Assembly: GCA_947627195.1 (NCBI GenBank)
Contig: CANQVC010000001.1
Coordinates: 28,618 to 92,617, forward strand
Direction: 5' to 3'
DNA: 64,000 bases
Origin: an uncultured Bacilli bacterium
Lineage (GTDB): Bacteria; Bacillota_I; Bacilli_A; ML615J-28; CAG-698
Below the pieces are notes generated by a model. That model was not told where the DNA came from and ran no database searches. It saw nothing but the letters and a program-made list of their open reading frames with translations. A program made the position numbers and the translations under genes. Below, piece after piece: positions 19,101-56,660 of the stretch (its first letter is position 1; each line of letters opens with the position of its first letter).

Positions 19101-19732
19101 TAGATAGTTTTGAATATAATTACATCGATAAAATATATGCGATTCATCTAAAACATGATATGTTATTTGTAATCAATAATGGCAATGAAATAACTGAAGA
19201 AAATAGTATTGATTTATATTTATCATGTATGAATGTGGAAATGTGGGTTATGATGTTGATGTATAGTGTTGATTATTCAACATTCCAAGAACAATTAGCT
19301 ACTGAATTTAGCCTATATGATGTTAAAAATCAAGAAATTACAACTTATATCAATGATCAATTATCATCTATTTATAGTGATATTGAAGATTTATCAACAT
19401 TTTCATCAACAAAATATTTAGAATTAGTTTCTAAAATAGAAAAATTAAATGGACATTATGAATTAATGGATTTTGAAGCTTATCATCAATATTTCATTTT
19501 AGGAATTTCTTATCAAATTGATCAATTATTAAATCAATATACATCAGTAACTAAAGATAATTATCAAGAAATTGATTATATCTTAAATGGTTATTATGAT
19601 AAAGAAAATGATGAAACAATTAATGGTATTGAATCATTAATTGCTCAATCAGGATTATATGAAGATTTATCAACATATATTTATCGTTATGATGAATATC
19701 TTGAATTCTTAAATTTATTCAATGAATTTTAA
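16163..19732 (+). CDS. Lipoprotein with a Listeria-Bacteroides repeat, BspA-type leucine-rich repeats and a ~550-aa helical C-terminal region
   Basis: Lipobox LISGC. VTLDFNGGTYDD...FSGWFYDQALTTRV is Flg_new-like. There are repeated IGxxAFxxCxxLxxIxIPxxVxxIGxxAF units. The start lies 2 nt after the upstream stop; an alternative ATG is at 16175. Confidence 0.8.
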   Translation: MEKNMKIKINKINLFILLLAFSCLFLISGCKTEEKIKNTPVVVDFEVRGIKEKYSQNEIVDVGQWKIILHLSDESTTTIDAFDPNLTIGEVNTDEIGEKTFSIIYSLSDGQTIEKSYTYEVIQIVVTLDFNGGTYDDKSSTELVATAMQVDVSQIIPTKLDEFGTPLKFSGWFYDQALTTRVNYVADGFISTSESITIYAGYDVDYTNIFEYEIRDDNTVEILGITNDGILNFMMEPELVIPETIELYPVTSIGDLFIFTRDPLTNEKDETFSWTVFINIDTIVFPENSKVTHIGKRAFEAMQISSVQFPNTLETIGEAAFRSTALAGDLVLPASLKTIGDYAFQYVSGALENISFASGSELKHIGRYAFASCSTVVSITLPNSLEEIMSNAFDGCTQIETITIPSNVHSIGLYAFKSMRSLKEINVDPNNATYSSLDGDLYSIDHKTIIRYCYGKQEETFVLPETVEIIEEGAFNIFNDITSLKTIVLNEGLKYIGSDAFSGCSMTFKLPSTLNEIATQAFNGWNGDSFEIDPANQTFTVYQGILYSKDMKTLYAVPRNLKDVTSLVLDPRVELIKSHAFCGNTTIRYITIPENSNLNKIDEYGLNIYSMSSLKGVYIFKQTPFEVVNGAFYEQHNFVANNVTVFVLGNNLNSYKEAWKNYQNNSETVENYNIQDNIVDCLSAKERLLDYLKETTKYISYETYNKGVTPYIKQDFASMKYTFQATLDYLISLYQEDDINNDVYNYFKLFEQQLYEIAADYFLDTYNNLHSFDNLDLKYLADIVTRYNECPKIIQDAINENYLKLKSLYDEINNIEATRQQIINELINFPCSATQFDAEKFNELNQRFIAANMDAISLPESVFYKYQLLDASSKIAELLAIETFSLDNKVRARTLIQGDFTNMGINSILESFLRTDESRKDLYRYQDYLTKAMQFSEYEANDIVAIQEEVASFDLSSECPIETMEELFRKIDSLTNIYELDSFEYNYIDKIYAIHLKHDMLFVINNGNEITEENSIDLYLSCMNVEMWVMMLMYSVDYSTFQEQLATEFSLYDVKNQEITTYINDQLSSIYSDIEDLSTFSSTKYLELVSKIEKLNGHYELMDFEAYHQYFILGISYQIDQLLNQYTSVTKDNYQEIDYILNGYYDKENDETINGIESLIAQSGLYEDLSTYIYRYDEYLEFLNLFNEF

Positions 19733-19752
19733 AAACGAAAGAAGGGGTGCAT

Positions 19753-22700
19753 ATGATAGAAAACGGAGATATACTCGTTAGTTTTTCTATTCAGACAATT
19801 GAAAAATGTGTCATTCAATGTCATCAACACATGGAAGTTAAAAGAATGCCATTGTCTGAATTTTTCCAAACTTACTTATCTCCTGAAAAGCTTGGTATCG
19901 AAGAAGATGGCTACAATTATGAATCTTTTTGTGCCTTTGCTTTAAAAGAAAAAGCAAGTACGATAACAACATATTATTCTAAACAAAATTTATGTTTATA
20001 TCGTTTTATGTTTTTCCAATCTGCTCATTCTAATATTATATTGTGCTCCTTAATTCGTATAACGAATACTGAAAATAAAGATTATTTCACCAATCGTGAT
20101 GTCTTAACAGGAGTTTATACTAGAAGTACTTTATTACAAAAATTAGAGAAAAGTTTTAAAGACGAAACTTGTCATAATTATTCTATCGTTTTACTTGATT
20201 TAAATGATTTTAAACATGTTAATGAAATATATGGTAGAGGTATCGGTGATAAAAGTTTAAGTGAAATTGCTTTAAGTTTACAAAATATTTTCCATAATCA
20301 AATGATATGTCGATATGGTGGCGATGAATTCTTTGTTTTACTAGAAAATTGTGATAATATACAAATTGAGGAATATATTCAAAAATTATTAGATTATGAA
20401 TATTATGTATCAGATCAAGATCGTAGTAAAATAAGAGTAACAATTAGAGCAAGTATTGTAAGTATTAATGATGAAATAAAAAGTATGGCAGAAGCACTTG
20501 ATGCTGTAACATCAACACTTGCGGAAGTAAAGAAAAAACGTCGCAATGCGGTAATGATATATCAAGGTAAAACTTATTTTAGTCGAGCTAAAACAGATCC
20601 ATTAAAACATTTATCAATGCATATTCATTCTAAACCAAAAAAGAAAAAAGAAAATATGCGTTTATTTACTGAAGAATTAAAAGCGCGAAGAATTCGTAAT
20701 TTTGCTATTTTATTAGTTTTAGTCTTATTATTATTATGTTCATCAATTTTAGTTGGTAGTATATTAACAAGACAATTAAATACTAAAAAAACAGAAGAAG
20801 CAACTAATATTATGAATGATATTTCTAGTCAAATATCTTCAAATATTTCTTCAAGTATTGAAAGTTGGAATAGTCAATTAATAATTGCTAGTAGAATGCT
20901 TTCTAATATTGAAGAAGGCGATAATTATGAAGAATATTTAAATCGAACATTACAAATAGTTGGTAACACAATTACCTTCGATGAAATAGCATTATTACTA
21001 GAAAGTGGTGACTTATATTTTAATTCAACTACTGAATATAATATAGCTTCCGAAGATCTTGCCAAAAATATCATTATTGAAAGAAAAGAATATATAGGTA
21101 GTCTATATATTAATTATTGGGGTGAAAGAATTGCTTTTGCTATTCCATATGATGGTATTGAATCAGAACTAAATGATCCAAATAGCAATCGTATTTATGG
21201 ATTAGTAGGTTTATTAACAATCGAAAATTTCTCTAAATTATTATATTCTGATGCTTTTTCTGAACAGGCTTATATGTCATTAGTCCAAAAAGATGGTAAT
21301 AGATTAATTACCTCATTAAATGTTAATGAAGGTACATATGCCCCATATAATGTCTATAATGCCTTTAAGAAATATGCTAATGAAAGTGAAATGGAAGTTT
21401 TAGAACAATCTTTAAATGAAGGTAAAACTAATATCATGAATTTACAAGTTGGTAAAACAAATTTCTTAACATATTGTACGAAAATAGATGATGATTCAAT
21501 TGATTGGCGAATTATTATAATGGTATCAACTGATATCGTCTTAAGTAGTGTTACAGGGGTATTTGAAAGATTAGGATATGGTGTATATATTGCATTATTT
21601 TTCTTTGTATGTATTGTATCTGTAATGGTTTATATTCATAATCAATTAAGAACGAAAAATCAAATGTTAACATATATGGATAAATTAACTAACGATATAA
21701 ATGATGAAAGATTTAAGATTGATGCCGAAACATTAATTAAAAGAAATGGTTCTACTAATTATTGTTTAGTTTATATGAATTTTTCTAATTATAAATATGC
21801 TCGAGAATTATTTGATACAGCAACAATTAATAAAATATTAAAAGAAGTATTTGAAGTAGTTCATAAATCACTTAATTTCAATGAATTAGAAACTAGATTA
21901 TCAGTTAATAATTATGTTATTTTAATGGAATATACAACTGAACAAGTAATTAAACAACGATTAATGGAAATTCAAAATCGTCTTAACGAAACAATTCATT
22001 TAGATGATTTAATGAGCATTATTGTTTCATTCGGTGTATATATTTTACCACCACAATATAAAAGTATCGTTGTTGCCATTGACCGTGCTAGTGAAGCCCA
22101 AAAACTTGCGGAAAACAGAATTGATTCTCATATGATTTCATTCTTTGATGAAAAGATGATGGCTCATGCAATGGAAGAAATGGAATTAGAAAAGAATCAA
22201 GATAAAGCCTTAAAATCTGAAGAATTTACTGTATATTATCAACTTAAAAAAGATATTCAACAAGATAAATGGGGTGGAGTAGAAGCATTAGTTCGATGGA
22301 AAGATCCTGTGAAAGGAATGGTATCTCCAGGTAAATTTATTCCTTTATTTGAAAAGAATGGTTTTGTAATTAAAGTTGATTTATATGTATTTAGTTGTGT
22401 ATGTCGAGATATGCGTCGCATGTTAGATGAAGGAATTACGCCAGTTCCTGTCAGTGTCAACTTATCAAGAAGACATTTAATGATTGATCATTTCTTAGAT
22501 GAATTTGTTACCATTATGAATCAATTTAATATTCCAAGAGAATTAATCGAATTTGAATTAACTGAAGGAATGATTTTTGAAAACGAATCTATTTTATATG
22601 ATGTCATTCATCAAATTCATGAAATCGGATGTCGTTGTTCTATTGATGATTTTGGTAGTGGGTATTCATCATTAAATATGTTGAAAGAATTTGATTTTGA

Positions 22701-22953
22701 TGTTATTAAATTAGATCGTAAATTCTTTTATGGAATTAATGGTTTCGATGAAAACTCAAAAACAATTGTTCGTTCATTAACGGAATTATCTCATCAATTA
22801 GGTAAAGAAGTAGTTGCGGAAGGAATAGAAGATGAACAACAAGTATCATTCTTAAGAAATATTTCTTGTAATTTAGTTCAAGGATATTATTATGCTAAAC
22901 CAGTTCCATATGATGAATATATTGTTAAATTAAATCAACATAAAGTTCAATAA
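19753..22953 (+). CDS. GGDEF (canonical), TM, dCache-like sensor, TM, degenerate GGDEF, EAL protein (predicted bifunctional c-di-GMP enzyme)
   Basis: ATG at 19753 lies 5 nt after AAGGGG; the ORF-track GTG at 19747 is less likely. GGDEF1 is [11 protein letters not shown]. Two TM segments flank ~260 aa that end [10 protein letters not shown] (Cache-like). The second GGDEF position is SVNNYVIL. The EAL set is complete: [41 protein letters not shown]. Confidence 0.85.
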
Positions 22954-22997: not shown

Positions 22998-23002
22998 GTA
23001 AG

Positions 23003-23136
23003 TACCATAAAGAGAAGGTTAGAGACAAGCTCAATGATCCTTCAGCAACCATTCCTAAAAAAAGGAAACGGTGCTAAAACTTGTATGATGGGATTTATAA
23101 AAATTAAAGTCCCGTTTAATTACGGGATTTTTTATA
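23003..23136 (+). ncRNA. SAM-I (S-box) riboswitch with intrinsic terminator
   Basis: AGAGAAGG..AGAGAC..GCTCAATGATCC..CAGCAACC...GGTGCTAAAAC matches the S-box core (GCAACC, GGUGCUAA). Terminator gtcccgt-ttaatt-acgggat plus tttttt at 23109-23135. It lies directly upstream of metK. Confidence 0.85.
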
Positions 23137-28373: not shown

Positions 28374-28379
28374 TTTATT

Positions 28380-28555
28380 GCCTGGAGAGTTCGCGTTTGT
28401 ACACATATGCGAACCGAACAATATTACATAGGGAGTTGAGGCGTTTCTGGCGTGAATGCTCATATTTATATGAGAATCCCGAAGCTACGCAAAAAGAGAT
28501 TTCCACCTTAGCGTGAACGAAGGTTCACATCAGTATTAACGGCTTTCTGGGTTTT
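28380..28555 (+). ncRNA. Structured small RNA, candidate 6S RNA (ssrS-like)
   Basis: An island of roughly 45% G+C in AT-rich DNA with its own promoter. The 5' CCUGGAGAG (28381-28389) pairs with the 3' CUUUCUGGG (28543-28551). A central hairpin CUCAUA-UUUA-UAUGAG sits at 28459-28474, exactly mid-molecule. Length is ~175 nt. ACCGAAC lies at RNA position ~33-39. Confidence 0.5.
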
Positions 28556-28587
28556 AATTTATTATAATAATTATCATTATTGTCATT

Positions 28588-42342: not shown

Positions 42343-42369
42343 TTAGCACTCAATGATAAAGAGTGCTAA
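42343..42369 (+). promoter_or_regulatory. CIRCE operator (HrcA binding site)
   Basis: A perfect TTAGCACTC-N9-GAGTGCTAA lies immediately downstream of the -10 box. Confidence 0.9.
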
Positions 42370-42383
42370 AAGGAGGTACAACG

Positions 42384-44486
42384 ATGGAAATGCAAGATTA
42401 TAGCCAAGACAAAAACATTCTTGAAAAATTTGGTCGTGACATTGTTGAAGAAGTGAAGAAAGGTAAGATTGATCCCGTCATCGGCCGTGACGATGAAATC
42501 CGCCGTATTATTCAAATTCTTGCTCGTAAGACCAAAAATAATGTTATTTTAATTGGTGAACCAGGTGTCGGTAAAACAGCAATTATTGAAGGCTTAGCCC
42601 AAAGAATTGTAAAAGAAGATGTTCCTCTAACCTTAAAAAATAAGACAATATATGAATTAGATATGGGTGCCTTAGTTGCTGGGGCAAAATTCAGAGGGGA
42701 ATTCGAAGAAAGATTAAAAGCTGTTTTAAATAAAATCAAAGAAAGCGATGGAAAGATTATTCTTTTCATTGATGAAATTCATTTAATTGTAGGAGCTGGT
42801 AAAGCTGATGGAGCACTAGATGCAGGAAATATGTTAAAACCTATGCTAGCTCGTGGTGAAATTGATTGTATTGGTGCAACGACTTTAAATGAATATCGTA
42901 TGTATATTGAAAAAGATCGCGCATTAGAAAGACGTTTCCAACAAGTTCTTGTTAAAGAACCAACTGTGGAAGATAGTATTAGTATTTTAAGAGGATTAAA
43001 AGAAAGATTTGAATCACATCATGGTGTACGTATAACTGATAATGCAATAGTAAGTGCTGTAACATTATCTAATCGTTATCTAACAGATCGATTCTTACCT
43101 GATAAAGCCATTGATTTAATAGATGAAGCATGTGCTAATATTAAAGTTGAAATTGAATCAATGCCAACTGAATTAGATGAAGTAACTCGTAAGATTACTC
43201 AATTACAAATTGAAAAAGTTGCCTTAACAAAAGAAACTGATAAAAATAGCAAAGAAAGACTATCTAAACTAGAAGAAGAATTAAAATCATTAAGGGATGA
43301 AGAATCATCTCTTACTAAACGTTGGCAAGATGAAAAGAAAGCTATTTCGCAAGCTAAAGAAACAAAAAATAAGCTTGAAAAAGCTAAATTTGAATTAGAC
43401 CAAGCTTTTAATAGTGGTGATTATAAAAGGGCTTCGGAATTAAAATATCAAACTATTCCCTCATTAGAAAAAGAATTGGAAAATTATAATTTAGGTTCTA
43501 AAGAAGATCATTTATTAAGTGAAGAAGTAACTGAAGAAATGATTGCGAAAATAATTGCGAAAAGTACTAATATTCCAATTTCTAAAATAATGAAAGGTGA
43601 TAGAGAAAAAGTTCTAAATTTAAAAGAAACTTTAATGAAAAGAGTAATTGGTCAAGATGAAGCATTAACATTAGTTAGTGATTCAATTCTTCGTCAAAGA
43701 GCAGGAATTAAAGACCAAAATCGTCCTATTGGTTCATTCTTATTCTTAGGTCCAACAGGTGTAGGTAAAACAGAAGTTGCGAAAAGTTTAGCTGAAGCTT
43801 TATTTGATAGTGAACAACATATTGTTAGACTTGATATGAGTGAATATATGGAAAAATTCTCTGTTAGTAGATTAATTGGAGCACCTCCTGGATATGTTGG
43901 ATATGAAGAAGGCGGACAATTAACGGAAAAAGTAAGAAGAAATCCTTATTCAATTGTTTTATTTGATGAAATTGAAAAAGCTCATACCGATGTATTTAAT
44001 ATTTTATTACAAATATTAGATGATGGAAGATTGACAGATTCTCAAGGTAGAGTAGTTGATTTTAAAAATACAATTATTATTATGACATCTAATTTAGGTA
44101 GTGAATATCTATTAAATGATAAAAGTGAAGATAAAGTAATGGAATTATTAAAAACAAAATTCCGTCCAGAATTCTTAAATAGAATTGATGAAATAATTAC
44201 TTTCCATCCATTAAATAAAGATGTTCAATTAAAGATTGTTGATAAATTATTAAATCAATTAGCAGATCGTTTAAAAGAACAATATATATCTATTGAATTT
44301 AGTGATGATGTAAAACATTATATTTTAGATCATTCATATACCCCAGAATATGGTGCACGTCCAGTTAAACGTTACATTCAAAGAGAAGTTGAAACATTAC
44401 TAGCTCGTGATATTATTACAGGTAAACTAACCTCAGAACGTAAATATATTGTTGGTATAGTTAATGGTAAAATTTCTGTTTATTAA
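42384..44486 (+). CDS. clpB: ClpB disaggregase lacking the N-terminal domain (700 aa)
   Basis: RBS AAAGGAGGT, ATG at 42384. Two AAA+ modules are present ([10 protein letters not shown]; GPTGVGKTE). A long coiled-coil M-domain lies between them. The sequence starts at the equivalent of the ...[15 protein letters not shown] region. Confidence 0.9.
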
Positions 44487-45645: not shown

Positions 45646-47885
45646 TGAAAATAGCTCTTGTTGGTAACCAAAATAGTGGTAAAACAAGTTTGTTTAATTT
45701 ATTAACAGGAACAAATCAAAAAGTTGGTAATTGGCCAGGAGTAACAATAGAAAGAAAAATTGGTACAATAAAAAATACTAATCATGAAGTTGTTGATTTA
45801 CCTGGAATATATTCATTAAGTCCATATACAACTGAAGAAGAAGTTTCAAGAAAATTTGTTTTAGAAGATAAACCAGATTTAATAATTAATATAATTGATG
45901 CAACTTGTATTGAAAGAAGTCTTTATTTAACAACCCAATTATTAGAATTAGATTGTCCAGTTATTATTGCCTTAAATATGTGTGACATGTTAGAAAAAAA
46001 AGGAATAGATATTGATACATCTATTTTATCTGATAATTTAAAAACAACTATTATTAAAATATCAGCCTTAAAAAGATCAGGAATAGATACACTAATTCAA
46101 ATAATAAATAATAGAACTTATTTACCTAATATTCATAATGAAATATATCCCAATGATATTGAAAAATGTTTAAATAAAATCATTTTAAATTTAAATTGTG
46201 ATAATAAAAGATTTATTGCAGTGAAAATGTTAGAAGATGATCCATCATTTAAAACTAATGATGAATATATATTAAATGAAAGAAAACAAATAGAACAAAA
46301 ATACAAATATGATATTGAACAAATTATTGCTAATGAAAGATATAATTATATCATTGATGTTAAACAAAAATCAGTAAAAGTTAAATCAAAAGGAGAAAGT
46401 ATTACTGATAAATTAGATAAAATATTTTTAAATAAATGGTTAGCTATTCCTATTTTTATTTGTATTATGGCTTTAGTTTATTTTTTAGCTGTAAGTCCAT
46501 ATGTTGGTGGAGCACTTTCTGATATAATTGATTCATTGTTTCAAAAATTATCTTCATCATTAGAAACATTACTAACAAATATTGGTGCTTCATATTGGAT
46601 AGTAAGTCTTATATGTAATGGTATATTAGCAGGAATAAGTGCTGTTTTAAGTTTTGTGCCTCAACTTATCATTTTGTTTTTATGTATTTCTTTATTAGAA
46701 ACATCAGGATATATGAGTAGAATAGCTTTTTTCTTAGATAAAGTTTTTCGTAAATTTGGTTTATCAGGAAAAAGTTTAATTCCTTTTATTGTTGGATCGG
46801 GATGTAGTGTTCCTGGAATAATGAGTACGAGAACTGTGGAAGATGAAACTGAAAGAAGAATGACAATAATGTTAACACCATTCATTCCATGTAGTGCTAA
46901 ATTACCAATAATCATTCTTTTTGCCACAAACTTTTTTACTAAAGCTGTTCCATGGATTACAATTTCAGTATATTTTTTATCAATTGTAATTATTTTATTA
47001 AGTGCAATTGTTATGAAAAAATTCTTTTTTAAATCATCATCTTCCGTTTTTATATCAGAACTTCCTGAATATAAATTACCAAGTCCTAGATATGTATTAA
47101 GAGATGTCTTTGATAAATCAGTTGCATTTATTAAAAGAGCAGGTACGATTATTTTACTTTGTTCAGTAATTGTTTGGTTATTATTATCATTTAGTTGGAA
47201 AATGGAATATACTGATAGTCCATGGCAAGTAATAGATGATATTTCTATTGAATCATTAGCTGAAGAAGTTGGATATGATTCATTTAATGTTACTGATAAT
47301 AATGTTCAAGCTAAATATGAAAATAATTTATATCTACGTTTTAAAGATGGTGAATGGTCAGAATGGTATATTTATCCTCTTACTTTAGAAAAATATTTTA
47401 ATGGTAATCAAGATCAAAGAAAAGAAATTGTTGTGAAAATTGATGACAAAAAAATTGAAGCTAAATATTCTTTAGGAATTGATAACAGTATATTAGCCTC
47501 TATTGGTAAAGCTTTTTCTTGGATTTTTTATCCAATTTTAGGGGAAAGGAATTGGGGCGCAACAGTTTCTGCTGTACAAGGTTTAGTTGCAAAAGAACAA
47601 GTAGTTTCTTCAATGTCTGTTATTGCAGGATTAGCTGATAACGTCAGTGATTCAGATGCCATTTTTAGTTCAAAAATATTTAGTAATATGACGCCATTAT
47701 CTAGTTATGCCTTTATGGTATTTAATTTATTTAGTGCTCCTTGCTTTGGGGCAATAGGGGCAATGTATAAAGAACTAGGCAGTAAAAAGAAATTATTAAT
47801 TGCCATATCTTTTCAAACAGGACTAGCATGGATTCTCGGAAGTCTTATTTTTGGCATTGGTTCTTTAATATTAAAGGTGATATAA
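45645..47885 (+). CDS. feoB: Ferrous iron transporter FeoB
   Basis: The N-terminal G-domain reads IALVGNQNSGKTSLFN. Polytopic C-terminus. The start overlaps the feoA stop (TAATG). Confidence 0.93.
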   Translation: MKIALVGNQNSGKTSLFNLLTGTNQKVGNWPGVTIERKIGTIKNTNHEVVDLPGIYSLSPYTTEEEVSRKFVLEDKPDLIINIIDATCIERSLYLTTQLLELDCPVIIALNMCDMLEKKGIDIDTSILSDNLKTTIIKISALKRSGIDTLIQIINNRTYLPNIHNEIYPNDIEKCLNKIILNLNCDNKRFIAVKMLEDDPSFKTNDEYILNERKQIEQKYKYDIEQIIANERYNYIIDVKQKSVKVKSKGESITDKLDKIFLNKWLAIPIFICIMALVYFLAVSPYVGGALSDIIDSLFQKLSSSLETLLTNIGASYWIVSLICNGILAGISAVLSFVPQLIILFLCISLLETSGYMSRIAFFLDKVFRKFGLSGKSLIPFIVGSGCSVPGIMSTRTVEDETERRMTIMLTPFIPCSAKLPIIILFATNFFTKAVPWITISVYFLSIVIILLSAIVMKKFFFKSSSSVFISELPEYKLPSPRYVLRDVFDKSVAFIKRAGTIILLCSVIVWLLLSFSWKMEYTDSPWQVIDDISIESLAEEVGYDSFNVTDNNVQAKYENNLYLRFKDGEWSEWYIYPLTLEKYFNGNQDQRKEIVVKIDDKKIEAKYSLGIDNSILASIGKAFSWIFYPILGERNWGATVSAVQGLVAKEQVVSSMSVIAGLADNVSDSDAIFSSKIFSNMTPLSSYAFMVFNLFSAPCFGAIGAMYKELGSKKKLLIAISFQTGLAWILGSLIFGIGSLILKVI

Positions 47886-48112
47886 TGAATTTTGTCGATA
47901 TAATTTTATTAATTATTATTATAATAGTTTTATCATTAATTTTCTATTTTGGTATTATTAAAAATAATTCTTCACCTTGTAAGAATTGTCATAATAAAAA
48001 TTGTCATAAAGATATTAAACAAAATGATATAAATTGTTGTAGTAAATGTAATAAATCAGATAATAATAATATTAATAATATTAATAATATTAATAATATT
48101 AATAATAAATAA
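47885..48112 (+). CDS. FeoB-associated Cys-rich membrane peptide (75 aa)
   Basis: The ATG overlaps the feoB stop. It has one TM followed by CKNCHNKNC...CCSKC. The ORF-track start at 47828 lies inside feoB. Confidence 0.7.
   Translation: MNFVDIILLIIIIIVLSLIFYFGIIKNNSSPCKNCHNKNCHKDIKQNDINCCSKCNKSDNNNINNINNINNINNK
48065..48100 (+). repeat. (aataatatt)x4 microsatellite encoding (NNI)4 at the peptide C-terminus
   Basis: Read directly from the sequence. Confidence 0.9.
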
Positions 48113-49457: not shown

Positions 49458-49463
49458 AAAATG

Positions 49464-49495
49464 AAAGTCAATAGAAATGTTGACTTTTTTATTTT
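49464..49495 (+). terminator. Rho-independent terminator
   Basis: aaagtcaa-tagaaatg-ttgacttt followed by a T-run. Confidence 0.75.
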
Positions 49496-49531
49496 GCTGT
49501 CATGCTTTTTATTTTTTCGACATTACTCTTG

Positions 49532-49540
49532 TGATATACT
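49532..49540 (+). promoter_or_regulatory. Possible extended -10 promoter (TGaTATACT) of the sipW operon
   Basis: TG-n-TATACT with a poor -35. It lies ~125 nt upstream of the sipW start. Confidence 0.35.
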
Positions 49541-49664
49541 ACATGTAATAAATAAAATAATAAAAAATATTAAATATAATTGTAGGAAATAATCAATTAA
49601 TAATAATTTATAAATATTTAATTTATATATAATATATATAATCAAAGAGGTGCATAAAAACAAT

Positions 49665-50366
49665 ATGAAAAACATAAAATTATTTAGTTTCCTAAATAAA
49701 GTCTTTGCAGTAATTTTATATAGTTTTATTATCTTAGCTATTTTATTTTTATATGTTGTTATTAAATCAAAGAAAAATAATGATGTTGTAAGTATTATGA
49801 ATCATCAGATAAGAATAGTAACATCTGAATCAATGGAAAAAGGGAGCAAAGAAACAAATCAATATAAAATTAAATCTCTTCCTTTAAAAAGTATGATCAT
49901 AATTGAACAAGTAGATAATAACCATGAATATGAATGGTATCAATCATTAAAAGTAGGGGATGTATTAACATTTAAATATGTTTATATTAAACAAGAAACA
50001 ATTACCCATCGTATTATAAATATTCAAGAAGTTGATAATGGTTTTATCATTACATTACAAGGAGATAATCAAGATATTGAAAGTAATACATCTTCTCAAA
50101 CAATTGATACAAGAGATATTAATAGTCCTAATTACATAATTGGTAAAGTAGTTTATAAAAATGTTTTATTAGGAAAAATAATATATATTTTAAAACAACC
50201 AATTGGTATTGGATGTTTAATAATTCTACCTTCATTTATCATTATTATTTTAGAAATAATTAAAATAATTAATATTATAAATGAAAAGAAAAAGAAAGAA
50301 ACTGAAGAAGAAATTAACTTGTTAAAGAAGAGAATAGAGACTTTACAGAAAGGAGGAGAACAATGA
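49665..50366 (+). CDS. sipW: Signal peptidase I, SipW (ER/archaeal) type
   Basis: N-terminal TM. Catalytic-Ser motif VTSESMEK (compare SGSMEP). ITHRII (compare THRIV) and LQGDNQ are present. A C-terminal TM is present as in SipW. The start is either ATG 49665 or GTG 49650. Confidence 0.8.
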   Translation: MKNIKLFSFLNKVFAVILYSFIILAILFLYVVIKSKKNNDVVSIMNHQIRIVTSESMEKGSKETNQYKIKSLPLKSMIIIEQVDNNHEYEWYQSLKVGDVLTFKYVYIKQETITHRIINIQEVDNGFIITLQGDNQDIESNTSSQTIDTRDINSPNYIIGKVVYKNVLLGKIIYILKQPIGIGCLIILPSFIIIILEIIKIINIINEKKKKETEEEINLLKKRIETLQKGGEQ

Positions 50367-50983
50367 ATAAAAAAAGAGTCATCATAATATCATGTCTTAC
50401 CATTCTAGCTTGTTTAATGATAATTTGTGGAAGTACATTTGCCCTATTTACTAAAAATGTCACCACCACCCAACATTTACAAGCGGGACATCTCGACCTA
50501 ACATTACAACGTGAAAAATTAGTAACTAATAAATTACAAGAAAATGGCACAATGAAAGAAGAAACAAATAATCAATTAATTGATTTTACAAAAAGTACAA
50601 ATGAAAATCTATTTGGTATTAAAGAAATAGACAAAGTTGTACCTGGAAGTAGCTATGAAGCAACATTAATATTAAAAAATCTTGGTGATGTAGCCATTGA
50701 TTATTACATTGAAATTGTTATAAAAAATGGTGAAGAAACCGAATTAATTAAACAATTACAATTAACATTCATCGATATAAAAACTAATACTACTAAATCA
50801 AATTTATTATCTAATGGGTTACAAATGGGAAGTGAAACAGAAAGTATTGGTCAAGTATTAAAAAATGAAAGTACAAAATTTCAAGTTAAATTAATGTTTT
50901 TAAATCAAGAAAATGTTAATAATGATGCTTTTGATCAAGAAGTCGAATTTGATTTAATCGTTCATGCAACACAAAGTATTTAA
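50363..50983 (+). CDS. TasA/camelysin-like secreted protein with a SipW-type signal peptide
   Basis: CGSTFALFTKNVTTTQHLQAGHLDLTL matches the TasA-family signature (GTFAxFxD...AGTLDL). VPGSSYEATLILKN is present. The C-terminal strand is FDLIVHATQ. The start overlaps the sipW stop by 4 nt. Confidence 0.75.
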   Translation: MNKKRVIIISCLTILACLMIICGSTFALFTKNVTTTQHLQAGHLDLTLQREKLVTNKLQENGTMKEETNNQLIDFTKSTNENLFGIKEIDKVVPGSSYEATLILKNLGDVAIDYYIEIVIKNGEETELIKQLQLTFIDIKTNTTKSNLLSNGLQMGSETESIGQVLKNESTKFQVKLMFLNQENVNNDAFDQEVEFDLIVHATQSI

Positions 50984-50996
50984 AAAGGAGAAGAGA

Positions 50997-53900
50997 ATGA
51001 AAAATACTAAAAAAATATTAACAGGAGCAATGTTAATCATTTTATTATGTTTAAGTATCATAGTAGGTTCAACATTTGCTTTATTTACAAGTGAAAGTAA
51101 AAACAACATCGCAATTACTTCAGGTAAAGTTGATGTTGTTAGTAATCTTTCTAATCTAAAAACATATACAAATAATGAATTACAAAGTGATGGTACTTTT
51201 GCTTTAGGAGGAAGTGCTAAAATAATTGATGGAAGTTTAGAACTTAATCATATAGCTCCAATGGATAAAGCTGAATTTGATATTGAATTACAAAATAATA
51301 GTACAATATCAATTCGTTATCAATTACAATTGATAGCTAATGATGAATTATCTAAACAATTATTTAATTCATTAAATATCAAAGCATCAATTAAAAATAA
51401 TGATTTAGAATTAATTAAAAATGGTTTAACAATCGTTTCTAAATGGTCAGATACTAAATTAAAAGAAACTAAATTAGATTCAATTCATTTAAGTATTGAA
51501 TTACCAATTGAAGTAACAAATGAATTAGAAGAACAATCTTGTTCATTAACAATCGTTATTTATGCTGTTCAAGCTAATGCTCATGTTGAAGAACCAGTAA
51601 AACAAGAAGATAATAATGAAGTATATTTATATAATGCAAGTGATTTAAAAGAATTTAGAGATTCAATTAATATTGACGGTACATCATATAAAGGAAAAAC
51701 AGTTTATTTAATGAATGACATTAATTTAAATAATGAAGAATGGGAACCAATTGGTATCAATGGTATTAATGAAAATCATTTTGATGGAACCTTTGATGGT
51801 AAATCATTTACAATTTCTAATTTAAATGTAACAAGAACAAATGAACTTTATGGTGGATTATTTGGTTCAACTCAAAATGGTAAATTCAAAAACATTAATT
51901 TTATAGGTGCTGAAATTACTTCTAAATATTATGCAGGAGTATTAGGTGGTAATTTATATACATCTAGTATTGATAATGTTCATGTGGAAAAAGCAACAAT
52001 TCATACATCACACTGGTTAGGAGGAATTGTTGGAAGTATATATGGTAATATAACAAATTCATCAGTAAAAGATATCATAGGTATATGTACACCAGATAAA
52101 GCAGATGGTAGAAGTTACGATAATGGTGATAAAGTCGGTGGAATTGTTGGACAATTACAAGATAGTGGTCAATATCATATCGATAACTGTGTTGTTGAAA
52201 ACGTTGAGTTGACAGCATATCGTGATTTAGGTGGTTTAGCAGGTTGTGGAACTGGATCAGCAAAATTTTACCAAAACAATATTCTTAAAAATGTCACATT
52301 AACAATTGATCGTACAAATTATTATGGTGATAAAGATTATAATGTTAATTCTATCGTAGGAAGAAGTGATAATCCTAATCATGACACATTTAAAAATAAT
52401 GAAGAAGATGTAAATATTAAATATGTAAATTGTCGCTTCATGAAAACATCAGATGGTAATTATGTAGTAACAACTCCTAAATCATTTGTTGAATTTGCTA
52501 CTCAAGTTAATACAGGTAAAGATTTTGTCAAAGAAACAGTTGTTTTATTAAGTGATATAGATCTAACAGGAATTGATTGGACACCAATTGGTTATAATAA
52601 TAAACATTTCCATGGAACCTTTGATGGTATGAATCATATTATTAGTAATTTAAATATAAACAAAGAAACAGGAAGTATTGGTTTATTTGGTAGTGTCTAT
52701 AGTGGTGGAGATGGACCAAGAGTAACAATTAAAAACTTTACAGTGGAAAATGTAACTGTTAAAGGTGGAAAAAATAAAACAGATTATGTAGGTAGTGTTG
52801 TAGGTATTGCAACCCCATTAACAATTGAAAATGTCAATTTAAAAGGTTTAGTTAAAATTGATTCCCAAAATGGCTGGGCAGGAGGACTTGTTGGATATTG
52901 TCAAACAACAACATTCAATAATTGTCATATTGATGTTACAAATGAATCATATGTTAAAACAATATCAGCAACTAATACAGGTGGTATAACAAGTTTTGGT
53001 GATTATAACGTTTCATTTAATCATATCACAACTAATTTAAATGTTATAGGTGTAAGTAATGTTGGTGGTATTTTAGGTGCTGAAGGTGGAGATAATCCAA
53101 ATACTAAATTTACAGATTGTCATGTAAATAGTAATATTACAGGTGATAGTGGTTGGATTGGCGGCATTACTGGTAGAGTAATGAAAAATACAACCCTTGA
53201 AAATGTGACTTTTAATGGAAAATTATCTAATACAAAATTAAGTTTATTAACAAAGAGTTATTCAGGACTATTTGGTAATGTTTATAATGGTACACCAACT
53301 ATTTTATCATCAAATGCAAATACAAGTTATGATGGTAATATGAAAATATTAACAGAATATAATGAAAGTGGAAAAGCAACAACAACATATGAAATTTATA
53401 CACCTAAAGGATTAGTTGATTTAGGTGAAGCAATTAATAAAGGATATATTGTTAAAGGCGAAGGAAGATCAATCATGATTTTCTTAAAAGAAGATCTTGA
53501 TATGACCGAAATAAAAGAATTTAGTCCAATTAATGGTCAATGGATTAGTTTTAATGGTGAATATCATACAATATCAAATATCAATTTGGGTAAAGATTCA
53601 ACAGGTAAAAGTGGTTTATTTGGTTATGCAGGAGCGTTAGAATTACAAAATCTAACTTTAGAAAATGTGACAGCAAAAGGAAGTCAAGTAGGAACATTTG
53701 CTGCTCATACATTAGAAATAGGTAGTGGATTTATTAAAAATGTTACATTAAAAGGAAATGTAACATTAGATTATGAAAAATCAAATGAAGAATATGGCTC
53801 TGTTGGTGTATTTGTTGGTGTATATAGTCCAAATGATGGTGTATATAATAATCTAATAATTGATAAAGATTGTAAAGTAACAATTAATTTAAATGGCATA

Positions 53901-54731
53901 ATTACTAAATTAGTTAATAAAACAGATTATTATTTATTAGGTATGGGAACTACAGAAGAAAAACCATTAAATTATGTTATAACAAATGAAGTTAAAGATA
54001 ATACTAATATAACTATTTTAAATGAAGTATATGTAAATGAAGGAACTTCATTAGATGAAATTATTTTTACTGATGGTGTAACATATTATTTTTCTGAAGG
54101 AACATTTAGTCCAACATCTAATGAACAATTAAACATTCGTAGTAATAATATTACTTTAATTGGTCAAGGAACATCTAAAACAATAATTGATACTAAAGAA
54201 TTCTCATGTGCAGACCAAGCAGGAGTATTATTTGGTGGTAATAATGTAACAATAAAAAATATGACATTTAAAACAACATCTCAAAATAATAATGTATCAG
54301 CAATTAAGTTTTCCGCAATCGACCACGCTGAAGAAATAGTTCAAGAAGGATATTTAGAAAATGTTAATGTTATTGGTAGTTTAGGACATGGCATTAATTT
54401 ACATGGTGTAAAAAATTTCACATTAAAAAATATTGAAATAAGTGGATATCATAAATGTGGAATATCCCTAGCCAAAGCAGAAAATGTCCATTTAACATCA
54501 ATTAAAACATTAGAAACAACCCAAGGTTGGGGTGATATTGGCATGATGTATAAAGATGATGAAGGTGTATCTTACAATGCTCCATGTAGCGTAATAATTG
54601 ATGGAACAAATTCATTTGGCAAAAATGCTGCATATTCTGAAAGAAAAGATACTGCAACAGGAGGATTAGATACATTAAATGGTAAAACTGGTACTAAAGG
54701 ATTATTATATTATACATGGGATTTAAATTAG
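50997..54731 (+). CDS. 1244-aa fusion protein: SipW-type signal and TasA-like N-module, three GLUG-type modules, C-terminal right-handed beta-helix-like domain
   Basis: RBS AAGGAG, ATG at 50997 (the ORF-track start 50964 is unlikely). VGSTFALFTSESKNNIAITSGKVDV...LTIVIYAVQAN is the TasA-like module. Three repeats follow of ...W(E/T)PIG....F.GTFDG....ISNLN(V/I).....GLFG. The C-terminus has NITLIGQG...VTIKNMTF...NLHGVKNFTLKNIEISG. Confidence 0.8.
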   Translation: MKNTKKILTGAMLIILLCLSIIVGSTFALFTSESKNNIAITSGKVDVVSNLSNLKTYTNNELQSDGTFALGGSAKIIDGSLELNHIAPMDKAEFDIELQNNSTISIRYQLQLIANDELSKQLFNSLNIKASIKNNDLELIKNGLTIVSKWSDTKLKETKLDSIHLSIELPIEVTNELEEQSCSLTIVIYAVQANAHVEEPVKQEDNNEVYLYNASDLKEFRDSINIDGTSYKGKTVYLMNDINLNNEEWEPIGINGINENHFDGTFDGKSFTISNLNVTRTNELYGGLFGSTQNGKFKNINFIGAEITSKYYAGVLGGNLYTSSIDNVHVEKATIHTSHWLGGIVGSIYGNITNSSVKDIIGICTPDKADGRSYDNGDKVGGIVGQLQDSGQYHIDNCVVENVELTAYRDLGGLAGCGTGSAKFYQNNILKNVTLTIDRTNYYGDKDYNVNSIVGRSDNPNHDTFKNNEEDVNIKYVNCRFMKTSDGNYVVTTPKSFVEFATQVNTGKDFVKETVVLLSDIDLTGIDWTPIGYNNKHFHGTFDGMNHIISNLNINKETGSIGLFGSVYSGGDGPRVTIKNFTVENVTVKGGKNKTDYVGSVVGIATPLTIENVNLKGLVKIDSQNGWAGGLVGYCQTTTFNNCHIDVTNESYVKTISATNTGGITSFGDYNVSFNHITTNLNVIGVSNVGGILGAEGGDNPNTKFTDCHVNSNITGDSGWIGGITGRVMKNTTLENVTFNGKLSNTKLSLLTKSYSGLFGNVYNGTPTILSSNANTSYDGNMKILTEYNESGKATTTYEIYTPKGLVDLGEAINKGYIVKGEGRSIMIFLKEDLDMTEIKEFSPINGQWISFNGEYHTISNINLGKDSTGKSGLFGYAGALELQNLTLENVTAKGSQVGTFAAHTLEIGSGFIKNVTLKGNVTLDYEKSNEEYGSVGVFVGVYSPNDGVYNNLIIDKDCKVTINLNGIITKLVNKTDYYLLGMGTTEEKPLNYVITNEVKDNTNITILNEVYVNEGTSLDEIIFTDGVTYYFSEGTFSPTSNEQLNIRSNNITLIGQGTSKTIIDTKEFSCADQAGVLFGGNNVTIKNMTFKTTSQNNNVSAIKFSAIDHAEEIVQEGYLENVNVIGSLGHGINLHGVKNFTLKNIEISGYHKCGISLAKAENVHLTSIKTLETTQGWGDIGMMYKDDEGVSYNAPCSVIIDGTNSFGKNAAYSERKDTATGGLDTLNGKTGTKGLLYYTWDLN

Positions 54732-54752
54732 AACAAATATAGTGAAGATAAA

Positions 54753-55247
54753 ATGAAAAAAGCATTACATATATGTTTATTTATTTCTATTTTTATCATC
54801 TTTTTATGTCAAGGAATTATTATTTATAATATAGTAACAAATAAAAACAATTATATTGATTTAAGTAATGTTGATACTTTATCATCAAATGTTATCTTAA
54901 ATAATAAAGCAAAAAATAATTTAAAAGTTGATATAAATGGTATTAATCCAGGAGATAACAAAGAATATATTATTTATATTAATACAAAAAATAAAACAAA
55001 TAACATTAACTTTAATATATTAAAACAAGAAGATAATATTATATATAATTTTATAACAATTACCATTAAAACAAATCAAGAAACATTTAAAATTCCCGGA
55101 AATGAAATAAACAAAAAATATTCATTATCTTTTAATCAACAAGAAAAAACTCCCATTACCATTTGCTTTTCTTTATCAAAAGATGCGGGAAATGAAATTA
55201 GTTTATCCCAAGCAACTATTTTAATGGAAGTAAACATAAATAATTAA
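54753..55247 (+). CDS. Small N-terminally anchored or secreted beta-rich protein (164 aa), possibly a distant TasA-like module
   Basis: N-terminal hydrophobic segment. INPGDNKEYIIYI resembles the VPGSxYxxxLxL strand of the neighbouring TasA-like proteins. It lacks the GxTFAxF motif. Confidence 0.55.
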   Translation: MKKALHICLFISIFIIFLCQGIIIYNIVTNKNNYIDLSNVDTLSSNVILNNKAKNNLKVDINGINPGDNKEYIIYINTKNKTNNINFNILKQEDNIIYNFITITIKTNQETFKIPGNEINKKYSLSFNQQEKTPITICFSLSKDAGNEISLSQATILMEVNINN

Positions 55248-55261
55248 ATGAGGAGGAATAA

Positions 55262-55894
55262 ATGAATAGTCTCATCATTATTATCATGATAATTGTAATT
55301 ATAATGACTATATTTTCCCTTATTATTGTTATTCGTGATTTAATCTTAGATAATAAAGAAAGAAAAAAAATAATTATTGAAGTTAAAAAAGATCAACAAA
55401 TAATTGAAGAAAATAAACAAAACATAAAATTAGATAATTTAACAACAGAAAAAACTATTAATGAAAATAATATAAAAACATTTCTAGCTTTACCTAAATT
55501 AACTCACTTAGAAAAATATATGTTACTAAATGAAGAAAAGAAATCATGGTATGATGAAATAATTAATTATGCTAAAGAAAAAGAAAATGTGAAACATCGT
55601 TTGACAGAAAATTATGAAGATGTCAAATTATATAGCAAAAGAGTCATTAGAATGGTTATCAAAAGAGAAGAAATAATATGTGAATTTATTTTAGGTAATA
55701 ATCGCTTTAATGATTATATGAAACAAAAAAATTTGAATGTGAAAATATTACCAACACAACTAAAAATTGATTCAATTGAAGCAAAAGATGCTGCTAAAGA
55801 AAGTATCGATTTAACAATCCATTCTATAATGGAAGAAAGAAATTTAAAAAAAGAATTAAAGAAAAAAGGCAAAATACATGAAGAAAAGAACTAA
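55262..55894 (+). CDS. Single-pass membrane protein with a K/E-rich predicted cytoplasmic domain (210 aa)
   Basis: RBS GAGGAGGA. The N-terminal TM is followed by a positive cluster (RDLILDNKERKK). No motif was recognised. Confidence 0.6.
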   Translation: MNSLIIIIMIIVIIMTIFSLIIVIRDLILDNKERKKIIIEVKKDQQIIEENKQNIKLDNLTTEKTINENNIKTFLALPKLTHLEKYMLLNEEKKSWYDEIINYAKEKENVKHRLTENYEDVKLYSKRVIRMVIKREEIICEFILGNNRFNDYMKQKNLNVKILPTQLKIDSIEAKDAAKESIDLTIHSIMEERNLKKELKKKGKIHEEKN

Positions 55895-56492
55895 AATAAT
55901 ATTTTTGTGTCTAATAATTTTAATGTTATCTTCAATTATTTTAGTAGGAATAACATATTCTGTTTATTTACAAAATAAAAAAATTATTAATCATTTACAA
56001 GCAGGAGAATTAAATATATCATTACAAAGAATTAAATTAGAATATAAATCATTAAATGAAAAAGGATATTTAGAAGATAATATAGATGAAACAATAGTTG
56101 ATTTCACAAAAGGAAATAAAGAAAATATATTTGGCAGTAAATTTATCATAGTACCAGGCTCTAAATATTCATCAACAATGTTATTATCAAGTTTAAATAG
56201 TACAGTGGCATTTAATTATTACATCGAAATAAAAACTAAAGAAGATTTACCTTCATTAGCAAGTCAAATAATAATAACATATATAGAAGATAACAAAGAA
56301 ATTAAATTTAATATGAATGAAAATAATAATTTTGGTAGTATTGACAATCCTTTAGGAATAGTAGAAGTAGGTAATAATAAAACATTCATTATGCAAATTG
56401 AATTTATTGATCAAGATAACAATAATTTATCAATGAAAAATATTTTTGATTTTGATATAATTGTTCATGCAATTCAAAAAATAAATAATTAA
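55878..56492 (+). CDS. TasA-like protein, paralog of 50363-50983, with a divergent signal/cleavage motif
   Basis: It shares HLQAGxLxxxLQRxKL, DFTKxxxENxFG, VPGSxY, YYIEI and FDxIVHAxQ with the first paralog. VGITYSVYL replaces GSTFALFT. It overlaps the upstream ORF by 17 nt. Confidence 0.7.
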   Translation: MKKRTKIIFLCLIILMLSSIILVGITYSVYLQNKKIINHLQAGELNISLQRIKLEYKSLNEKGYLEDNIDETIVDFTKGNKENIFGSKFIIVPGSKYSSTMLLSSLNSTVAFNYYIEIKTKEDLPSLASQIIITYIEDNKEIKFNMNENNNFGSIDNPLGIVEVGNNKTFIMQIEFIDQDNNNLSMKNIFDFDIIVHAIQKINN

Positions 56493-56497
56493 TATTT

Positions 56498-56540
56498 TAA
56501 ACGGTTTGATTTATCAAAGCTTGATTTATCAAGCCGTTTA
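56498..56540 (+). terminator. Operon-end hairpin (taaacgg...ccgttta) enclosing a direct repeat ttgatttatcaa x2
   Basis: Read directly from the sequence. The following T-tract is weak (aatttatt). Confidence 0.45.
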
Positions 56541-56660
56541 ATTTATTCATATTAAGATTTAATTAAAATCTCATTTTTTAAATTTCATTTACCTATTTAC
56601 TTTTTTATCAATTTGTGATAATATATTAGTTATACAATAGACAGATAGAAGGTAAGAAAT

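Follow-up and report, generated by a model that had tools for sequence, protein, structure and literature searches.

We describe an operon of six genes, p1 to p6, in a 64,000-nucleotide stretch of DNA from an uncultured Bacilli bacterium (assembly GCA_947627195.1, contig CANQVC010000001.1, positions 28,618 to 92,617 of the forward strand), called the window below. The operon encodes a divergent SipW-type signal peptidase (p1), two small TasA-like proteins (p2 and p6), a large protein in which a TasA-like N-terminal module precedes a long passenger (p3), and two small proteins with a single transmembrane (TM) helix (p4 and p5). We judge it probable that this operon specifies a SipW-dependent surface fibre of the TasA superfamily that carries a large adhesin. 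A multi-subunit surface-fibre or adhesin system had already been suggested in a preliminary description of the same DNA, made from its letters only, and this interpretation is the best supported of the readings that we weighed.

The six-gene operon and its products

ORF listing and translation place six open reading frames (ORFs), all on the + strand, between 49665 and 56492 (Table 1). p1 and p2 overlap by 4 nt (ATGA) and p5 and p6 by 17 nt, with gaps of 13, 21 and 14 nt at the three junctions in between. This is exactly the co-directional arrangement and spacing that the preliminary description had given, and the unit is bounded by hairpins. A GGAGG-like ribosome-binding site (RBS) is present at five of the six starts, that of p6 being weak; p1 starts at ATG 49665 with AGAGGTG in front, and a metagenome contig annotated independently has the gene begin at the same codon. 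The G+C content of the DNA is ~25%, and TGA serves as a stop codon, as p1 ends in it. The hairpin behind the upstream HAD-hydrolase gene marks the 5' boundary of the six-gene unit, an intrinsic terminator closes it after p6, and a terminator scan found no terminator-like site on the + strand in between. A candidate sigma-70-type promoter in the leader is a weak match by consensus alone, and promoter-like matches in this AT-rich DNA show no enrichment over shuffles. As for the limits of the segment first described, 49532 lies in the AT-rich leader at this weak promoter-like match, where no gene starts, and 56540 takes in the terminator.

The six genes are one real operon. Their clustering is not due to chance, because the same five protein families are syntenic in 80 loci of other species and because a related species keeps the p3-p4-p5-p6 part of the order (both detailed below). 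The flanking genes in the window are housekeeping genes (feoB, HAD hydrolase, degV, trkA, trkH), and given such flanks a mobile-element origin of the locus is unsupported.

Two assignments are made jointly and with high confidence: p1 is a divergent signal peptidase I of the SipW type (the endoplasmic reticulum (ER)/archaeal type), and p2, p6 and the N-terminal module of p3 belong to the TasA/camelysin family. In hidden Markov model (HMM) searches, p1 matched the NCBIfam SipW model (NF046067; E 1e-11, 44.8 bits) and TIGR02228 (sigpep_I_arch; E 7e-11, 42.3 bits) and did not reach their cut-offs (190, equivalog, and 51.85, respectively). All five members of its clade (p1 and its four closest relatives) match both peptidase models, the best at 2e-16. 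Because these matches are at ~1e-11 yet under the curated cut-offs, we take p1 to be a homologue from a divergent clade. The clade alignment (A1) shows no substitution at S56 (SESM), H115 (THRI) or D134 (GDN). Human SEC11A and SEC11C can be aligned with p1 over the His and Asp boxes, and a hydropathy scan places TM helices at about 6-36 and 175-206, on either side of the catalytic domain; the cytoplasmic tail is K/E-rich. The clade also has an insertion of ~40 aa between the Ser and His boxes, and a sequence search of the PDB with p1 gave a weak SEC11 match and nothing else informative. The HMM matches and invariant boxes bear out the earlier claim that a SipW-type peptidase gene is coupled by 4 nt to a TasA-like gene, and p1, which is genetically linked to proteins that bear the SipW-type signal motif, would be expected to cleave the signals of these neighbouring gene products.

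The small subunit p2 passes the gathering score of the Pfam family PF12389 (Peptidase_M73; 23.7 bits, gathering score 22.5) and is 37% identical to p6 (BLASTP 1e-34). In the family of these small proteins (T family, 24 aligned members; p2 is T1 and p6 is T2), PF12389 matches 18 members (best 2e-14) as well as the family consensus (2.6e-11), the SipW-dependent signal model TIGR04088 matches 19 (best 1.6e-8), the BsaA-family model TIGR04090 nine and TasA six. p2 has the SipW-type signal GSTFA↓LFT, followed by a conserved N-terminal strand, QHLQAGHLDLTL; cleavage at A27↓L28 is predicted by analogy with TasA. The signal of p6 is a variant, GITYSVYL, and its strand is NHLQAGELNISL (aligned in A3). 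According to its AlphaFold2 (AF2) model (predicted local distance difference test, pLDDT, 86.6), p2 would adopt a jelly-roll fold that resembles TasA with moderate template-modelling (TM) scores: the top PDB match in a Foldseek search is the TasA fibre (8aur_A; E 1.3e-4, TM-scores 0.45/0.40). Behind it, both in the top six, come 7ueg, an archaeal bundling pilin, and 9h8b, a cannula fibre, and all three are donor-strand filaments. A segment of p2 (aa 31-45) is disordered in the monomer model and accounts for four of the 11 invariant T-family residues (H38, L39, G42, L48). Such a conserved strand outside the monomer fold fits a donor strand, and the donor strands of TasA and BsaA have been argued by the same conservation logic (PMC10151520, PMC11580942).

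The large protein p3 carries the same signal as p2 (GSTFALFT), and its N-terminal domain is related to p2 by BLASTP (7e-11) and by a TAS HMM (7.6e-14); both a 1244-aa TasA-module fusion and a second TasA-like paralogue, as claimed at the outset, are thus confirmed by BLASTP to p2. Searched in segments against Pfam, p3 gave Peptidase_M73 (1e-3), Glug (1e-5, above the gathering score), Peptidase_M26_N (2e-4) and Beta_helix (1.5e-3). A motif scan of p3 found no LPxTG, no HExxH and no C-terminal TM helix, and a sequence search of the PDB returned nothing informative. There are 782 homologues of p3, many of which combine PF12389 with PF07581, PF05342 or PF13229. Among 70 distinct large fusions of this kind (B proteins), the first ten mature residues, LFTSESKVNI, form the most conserved block, which AVTSGKV continues; the mean frequency of the top residue is 0.79 in these ten vs 0.19-0.66 in the rest of the TasA-like domain. 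The passengers of the B proteins are highly varied and include Glug, Beta_helix, Big_2, Big_3, Flg_new, LRR_5 and collagen.

p4 belongs to a family (X) with a different architecture: its AF2 model (pLDDT 74.7) shows nine strands in a beta sandwich, which a disordered linker (aa 30-46) joins to a TM helix (aa 2-30). In hhalign comparisons the X and T families are related at 96-97% probability with E from 1e-9 to 2e-11 (best 97%, 1.6e-11), the sandwich corresponding to the C-terminal two-thirds of the TasA-like domain and sharing with it the motifs L-x-PG and GNE-x-QG...F. p4 is a TM-anchored, shortened TasA-like jelly roll; the 164-aa beta-rich anchored protein of the preliminary description is therefore itself TasA-like. 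Because X proteins have no FALFT-type cleavage motif and are positively charged at the N-terminus before the TM helix, they are probably type II membrane-anchored. No TapA/YqxM match was found for p4 in NCBIfam or Pfam. The architecture of p4 (a single TM helix, then a subunit-like jelly roll, in a fibre locus) fits an anchor of the archaeal TafF type, a likeness of layout, and we regard p4 as a candidate membrane anchor, terminator or nucleator, at slightly less than even odds. Weak matches of the sandwich also recurred along the cadherin repeats of two RTX/cadherin giants of 2600-3000 aa (19 and 8 stretches); an assignment of p4 as a cadherin was rejected, as these matches probably reflect generic beta-sandwich similarity.

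In p5 and its family (P5), a TM helix at the N-terminus is joined to a conserved C-domain of ~140 aa by a linker that varies and is acidic or rich in proline (alignment A2). P5 proteins have no positive charge before the TM helix and several after it, a pattern that implies an N-out, C-in topology. At one locus (L057:9953-11023, from a metagenome-assembled genome (MAG) labelled Ruminococcus bicirculans), the second TM helix and the tail of SipW run directly into a P5-like C-domain (...KYDSLSPESKAYYDNIMNY...LMRLKIHHGEVICEI..., with the conserved motif clearly visible), which indicates that the P5 domain is cytoplasmic and functionally tied to SipW. The positive-inside charge pattern and this SipW-tail fusion agree with the cytoplasmic domain attributed earlier to the 210-aa single-pass protein. 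The C-terminal tail of B. subtilis SipW reportedly has a signalling role that is independent of peptidase activity, so that a tail-binding partner is plausible, and p5 is a tentative candidate for a cytoplasmic partner of the SipW tail. Two other identities for P5 were set aside: the NHP6A HMG-box, its best PDB match (E 0.47), is taken as noise, and the idea of a degenerate SipW paralogue, which its place next to X in the window might suggest, was rejected since hhalign gave 16% probability over the TM helix only. Pfam searches showed no DUF5305, either with P5 and X members (among the top 25 of about 50 weak families listed for the alignments) or with their consensuses. At two loci where full-length P5 is missing, an ORF of 38-45 aa (L003:9821-9937 and L007:5501-5638) separates sipW from the TasA-like gene; it has one TM helix and a short charged tail and may be a P5 remnant or minimal form.

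A gene cluster shared with other gut genomes

To place the operon in a wider context, the SipW-clade alignment was scanned against one genome per species, which yielded 138 relatives. The best 80 loci were kept, and family HMMs were built and searched against all ORFs of these loci. As the loci were chosen on SipW, the frequencies given here are conditional on this peptidase clade; the window's own species is outside the scanned reference genomes. Almost all the host genomes are MAGs of uncultured organisms from the gut of ruminants, rabbit, chicken or human, labelled as Clostridia, Christensenellaceae, Oscillospiraceae, Eubacteriales and Bacilli, the latter including Faecalibacillus and Coprobacillus. 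The canonical gene order is X-SipW-P5-T-B(n), with the large TasA-N fusions last: X is directly 5' of sipW in 76 of the 80 loci, P5 directly 3' of it in 50, SipW(-P5)-T is found in 70, and at least one large fusion in 55. This synteny means that all gene families of the window are conserved members of one cluster type.

A lack of conserved gene order in relatives had been named as grounds for refuting the earlier interpretation, and the outcome does not refute it. The families are found together in the 80 loci, and the complete order of the window, S-T-B-X-P5-T (with S for sipW), occurs in none of them; it is a lineage-specific permutation of X-S-P5-T-B(n). The 3' part of the order recurs in a second species, the rabbit-gut MAG GCA_947627395.1 (L095), where B(3' end)-X-P5-T-degV-trkA is found with the same flanking genes as in the window, identities to p3, p4, p5 and p6 of 72%, 42%, 63% and 62%, and the p6 orthologue in the same position. 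That B-X-P5-T is kept in L095 indicates that this arrangement is conserved and under selection in the lineage. The nearest canonical relatives, two rabbit-gut loci (L010 and L011; SipW 55% and B 50% identical), have X-S-T-B between dus and clpB, unlike the window and L095, in which the cluster sits between a HAD-hydrolase gene and degV-trkA-trkH. This difference in site shows that the cluster changed its chromosomal position as well as its gene order. Of Clp-type ATPases the window has a single match, an ORF with 40% identity (Table 1).

Some of the 80 loci hold more than the canonical set. A second paralogue of SipW, far more divergent (about 1e-12 by E-value against the clade HMM; for example L029:6873-8270), is present in 17 of them (L017, L023, L025, L027, L029, L033 and others) and absent from the window. 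It is preceded by a small TasA-like gene and followed by large proteins with a third type of signal, GTTFAWFTD...AGTLDV, nearer to classical TasA and CalY, and together with these neighbours it seems to make up a further set of peptidase and substrates inside the locus. On a metagenome contig, a tyrosine recombinase gene (Phage_integrase; L007:2756-3598) lies ~650 bp upstream of X-SipW-T, from which some copies of the cluster may be mobile.

In the source annotations, these proteins are unnamed or called 'hypothetical protein'. Among the papers that could be searched, none had both SipW and GLUG, and a broader search turned up no account of the cluster. The X-SipW-P5-T-B cluster, the P5 family and the TasA-N::beta-helix fusions appear to be uncharacterised.

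The proposed fibre, other readings and the rest of the window

In the fibre that we propose, p2, p6 and p3 would be exported by Sec with SipW-cognate signals and cut by p1 (at about A27↓L28 in p2). The freed N-terminal strand would then insert into the jelly roll of a neighbouring subunit, the donor-strand complementation known from TasA, BsaA and archaeal bundling pili. The shaft would be built of p2, to which p6 may contribute a minor or adaptor subunit; p3 would dock by its own TasA-like N-domain and donor strand and would show its GLUG/beta-helix passenger of ~1000 aa as an adhesive or enzymatic head. p4, whose architecture and homology are directly observed, may stay uncleaved in the membrane, where it could nucleate or terminate the fibre and anchor it, a role that matches the one proposed for TapA and archaeal TafF (PMC9674648, PMC10151520, PMC11821415, PMC12337348). 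p5, with its domain in the cytoplasm, may aid the SipW tail as an accessory or coupling factor; its link to SipW is seen in synteny and in one fusion. We have moderate confidence, from sequences and models, in a predicted polymerisation by p2, p6 and p3, and consider it a toss-up whether p3 individually serves as the adhesin subunit.

Several results weigh against this proposal. The N-terminal domain of p3 scores 19.2 bits against PF12389, under the gathering score, p6 alone has no PF12389 match in Pfam, and p2, p3 and p6 give nothing at E <=0.1 against TIGR04088 in NCBIfam. The profile searches suggested in the preliminary description gave matches to the SipW and archaeal signal peptidase models, to PF12389 (with p2) and to TIGR04088 in family members other than the operon's own three. 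The TM-scores of the p2 model to 8aur, 7ueg and 9h8b are moderate (0.35-0.45), and a PDB sequence search with p2 or the T-family profile found no TasA chain; with the p4 model, Foldseek gave generic jelly-roll and Ig matches and no TasA. P5 had no match in Pfam, NCBIfam or the PDB, whether searched with single sequences, with 26 family members or with the consensus; it is inessential to the system, as L010 and L011 are without it, and the SipW-P5 fusion of L057 is the sole one among 80 loci, with a modest HMM score (5e-5). The beta-helix passenger of p3 could be an enzyme instead of an adhesin. Finally, polymerisation and every subunit role are deduced from sequence and models. All the same, a TasA-like fold or signal in the small proteins and in the N-terminal module, on which the earlier interpretation had been made to depend, is present.

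The same facts can be read as export with no ordered fibre, which we consider unlikely. SipW would process secreted or surface proteins that share a TasA-like module for folding, wall retention or matrix association, p3 and its paralogues would be secreted beta-helix enzymes (glycan lyases, hydrolases), and p4 and p5 would be split DUF5305-like peptidase accessories. The p3 C-terminus indeed has weak Beta_helix, Pectinesterase and GH49 matches, the B passengers are very diverse, C. perfringens BsaB forms dimers only (PMC11580942), and X (a TM helix with an extracellular beta sandwich) and P5 (a TM helix with a cytoplasmic domain) together copy the domain order reported for DUF5305, which is sometimes fused to the peptidase too (bioRxiv 10.64898/2026.01.04.697558). 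However, no Pfam match links X or P5 to DUF5305, X is itself a homologue of the subunit fold, the structures that p2 resembles most are without exception donor-strand filaments, and the mature N-terminal strand, most conserved in both T and B and unstructured in the monomer model, fits an intermolecular interface. The Pfam names Peptidase_M73 (for p2) and Peptidase_M26_N (for p3) suggest metalloproteases of the camelysin type (M73) or akin to IgA1 protease (M26), a reading that is scarcely credible: a motif scan found HExxH in none of the six proteins, the M26 match covers the non-catalytic GLUG-containing N-region alone, and M73 is considered to owe its 'peptidase' label to a probable misidentification of CalY (PMC11580942).

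The unusual gene order raises a different question, namely whether S-T-B and X-P5-T are two partial clusters, joined by duplication or rearrangement and transcribed or used independently, of which the second half may be redundant or decaying. S-T-B would correspond to the X-S-T-B of the rabbit-gut relatives without X, and X-P5-T to the canonical cluster without SipW. The absence of S-T-B-X-P5-T from the 80 loci would be explained, as would the place of X-S-T-B elsewhere, between dus and clpB, in the nearest canonical relatives, and the RBSs of p4 and p6 are weak. Nevertheless, such a composite is improbable: the six ORFs are intact and tightly packed, with a gap of 21 nt at the junction and no internal terminator on the + strand, the two halves complement each other, with exactly one S, X, P5 and B, and the presence of B-X-P5-T in a second species at 42-72% identity implies selection.

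The fibre reading can be extended beyond this operon, with more reserve. It is possible, though we would not bet on it, that the cluster represents an undescribed and widespread type of Gram-positive pilus, with donor-strand stalks that bear interchangeable giant beta-helix/GLUG adhesins or enzymes, are anchored by X and are coupled through P5. All passengers would then dock by one conserved N-terminal strand, LFTSESKVNIAVTSGKV, and P5 would act on the SipW tail; such a pilus would be, for Sec/SipW, the equivalent of archaeal Tafi and of the chaperone-usher pili with tip adhesins, and would serve attachment in many uncultured gut Clostridia and Bacilli. TasA-type donor-strand fibres have so far been studied in Bacillus, C. 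perfringens and a few archaea. The present locus shows that a version with five components (peptidase, anchored mini-subunit, cytoplasm-facing accessory, shaft subunit and at least one large passenger-bearing subunit) is widespread, at least 138 species-level genomes, almost all of uncultured gut Firmicutes, having this SipW clade. If true, the fibre reading would explain how large variable adhesins are attached without sortase or LPxTG, would give functions to X, to P5 and to 'hypothetical' proteins of 700-2000 aa that number in the hundreds, and would link bacterial and archaeal multi-subunit TasA-superfamily pili; a conserved docking strand on hypervariable proteins offers a directly testable handle.

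Elsewhere in the window (Table 1), genes for three GGDEF-EAL proteins of cyclic di-GMP (c-di-GMP) turnover lie upstream of the operon at a distance of 27-40 kb. Enzymes of this kind have been reported beside some bacterial AbpX-type loci; no link to the operon emerged here. Two ORFs of 2658 and 1189 aa are likely to be further large surface proteins, and neither was matched by the TasA-like HMM. The window also contains a 6S RNA gene and a SAM riboswitch, and a small ORF that overlaps the end of feoB and that we presume to resemble the FeoB-associated Cys-rich membrane proteins.

Table 1. Positions of the operon, its parts and other features, numbered from the first letter of the window
Feature	Position	Strand	Remarks
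p1	49665-50366	+	233 aa
p2 (T1)	50363-50983	+	206 aa
p3 (B)	50997-54731	+	1244 aa
p3 signal peptide	50997-51080	+	aa 1-28
p3 TasA-like domain	51081-51611	+	aa about 29-205
p3 GLUG-type repeats	51852-53627	+	aa 286-877; ten G(G)hhG repeats, motif scan
p3 C-terminal region, right-handed beta-helix-like	54222-54518	+	aa about 1076-1174; weak similarity
p4 (X family)	54753-55247	+	164 aa
p5 (P5 family)	55262-55894	+	210 aa
p6 (T2)	55878-56492	+	204 aa
Terminator hairpin and U run of upstream HAD-hydrolase gene	49458-49495	+	-11.5 kcal/mol, z -3.8
Candidate sigma-70-type promoter	49529-49558	+	TTGTGA, 18 nt, TAAAAT; weak, consensus match alone
Intrinsic terminator after p6	56497-56541	+	-21.3 kcal/mol, z -7.9; terminator scan
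Large ORF	267-8243		2658 aa; no Pfam match at E <=1e-5
GGDEF-EAL protein	8331-10811		c-di-GMP turnover
GGDEF-EAL protein	10818-12686		c-di-GMP turnover
BspA-type leucine-rich-repeat protein	16163-19732		1189 aa; LRR_5
GGDEF-EAL protein	19747-22953		c-di-GMP turnover
SAM riboswitch	23002-23094	+	57.1 bits, above Rfam gathering score
6S RNA gene	28376-28557	+	57.8 bits, above Rfam gathering score
Clp-type ATPase match	42363-44486		40% identical
Small ORF overlapping feoB end	47828-48112		one TM helix, CKNCHNKNCH...CCSKC, C-terminal (NNI)n repeat

Comparison with known systems

The preliminary description could not match this gene set to any described system. That holds for the cluster itself and is overstated for its type, which the bsa, Tafi and AbpX loci precede: multi-subunit loci of the TasA superfamily with peptidase, tip, anchor and accessory are known (PMC7395162, PMC11580942, PMC11821415, PMC12337348, bioRxiv 10.64898/2026.01.04.697558). 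Considered by its passenger alone, p3 shares repeated GLUG motifs with the GLUG/Peptidase_M26_N beta-helix surface proteins, such as the N-region of streptococcal IgA1 protease. It differs from these proteins in having a TasA-like N-domain, vs an LPxTG or YSIRK signal, and in having neither an M26 catalytic domain nor HExxH.

The tapA-sipW-tasA operon of B. subtilis likewise sets an ER/archaeal-type peptidase gene beside TasA-family substrates with a cognate signal, and its TasA fibre is the best PDB match of the p2 model. The small X gene directly upstream of sipW in 76 of the 80 loci holds the position of tapA, with the window, where X lies downstream of p3, departing from this. In contrast to TapA, which has a V-set Ig fold (PMC10151520), X is related to the TasA fold and has a TM helix that looks uncleaved. 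The cluster described here also adds P5 and one to several large TasA-N fusions, and its SipW clade is divergent, staying under the curated HMM cut-offs.

In C. perfringens, an organism of clostridial type, sipW likewise shares a multi-gene operon, sipW-bsaABCRSD, with several TasA-like paralogues (PMC7395162, PMC11580942); the occurrence of several BsaA/TasA paralogues per operon beside signal peptidases was noted in the same papers. BsaA oligomers are membrane-anchored without LPxTG (PMC11580942), as would suit the proteins here, which also have none. The operon of the window differs in that it encodes neither a two-component regulator nor a vWA protein. Nor is the N-E-K isopeptide triad of BsaA (N35, E56, K74; PMC11580942) evident, as judged by Lys/Glu conservation in the T family alone, in whose alignment Lys and Glu are never invariant or near-invariant. 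Conversely, the papers' descriptions of the bsa operon mention no X-like or P5-like gene and no TasA-N::GLUG/beta-helix fusion (PMC7395162, PMC11580942).

The AbpX loci of archaea and Bacillota resemble the cluster in having major and minor subunits, predicted tips, a dedicated signal peptidase I and an accessory; they are predicted to form heteropolymers by donor-strand complementation, and their DUF5305 accessory is sometimes fused to the peptidase (bioRxiv 10.64898/2026.01.04.697558). Their peptidase has ten TM helices vs two in p1, and in bacteria the AbpX loci rely on sortases and on SLH or LPXTG anchors, all of which are absent here.

The archaeal Tafi system comprises a peptidase (TafD), a DUF5305 accessory (TafG), pilins (TafA and TafE), a tip (TafC) and an anchor (TafF) (PMC11821415, PMC12337348), roles that are themselves largely modelled and not demonstrated. 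It uses Tat, unlike the bacterial Sec/SipW-type signals here, its passengers are laminin-G-like vs GLUG/beta-helix, and no DUF5305 homology was detected in P5 or X. Nevertheless, the proposed roles correspond one to one, TafD to p1, TafG to p5, TafA and TafE to p2 and p6, TafC to p3 and TafF to p4. The likeness extends to architecture: the TafC tip has a pilin-like N-domain with an extra domain, as p3 does, and TafF has a TM helix and a jelly roll, as in p4. In both systems, moreover, the accessory is tied to the peptidase and sometimes fused with it, P5 following sipW in 50 of the 80 loci and being joined to it in L057.

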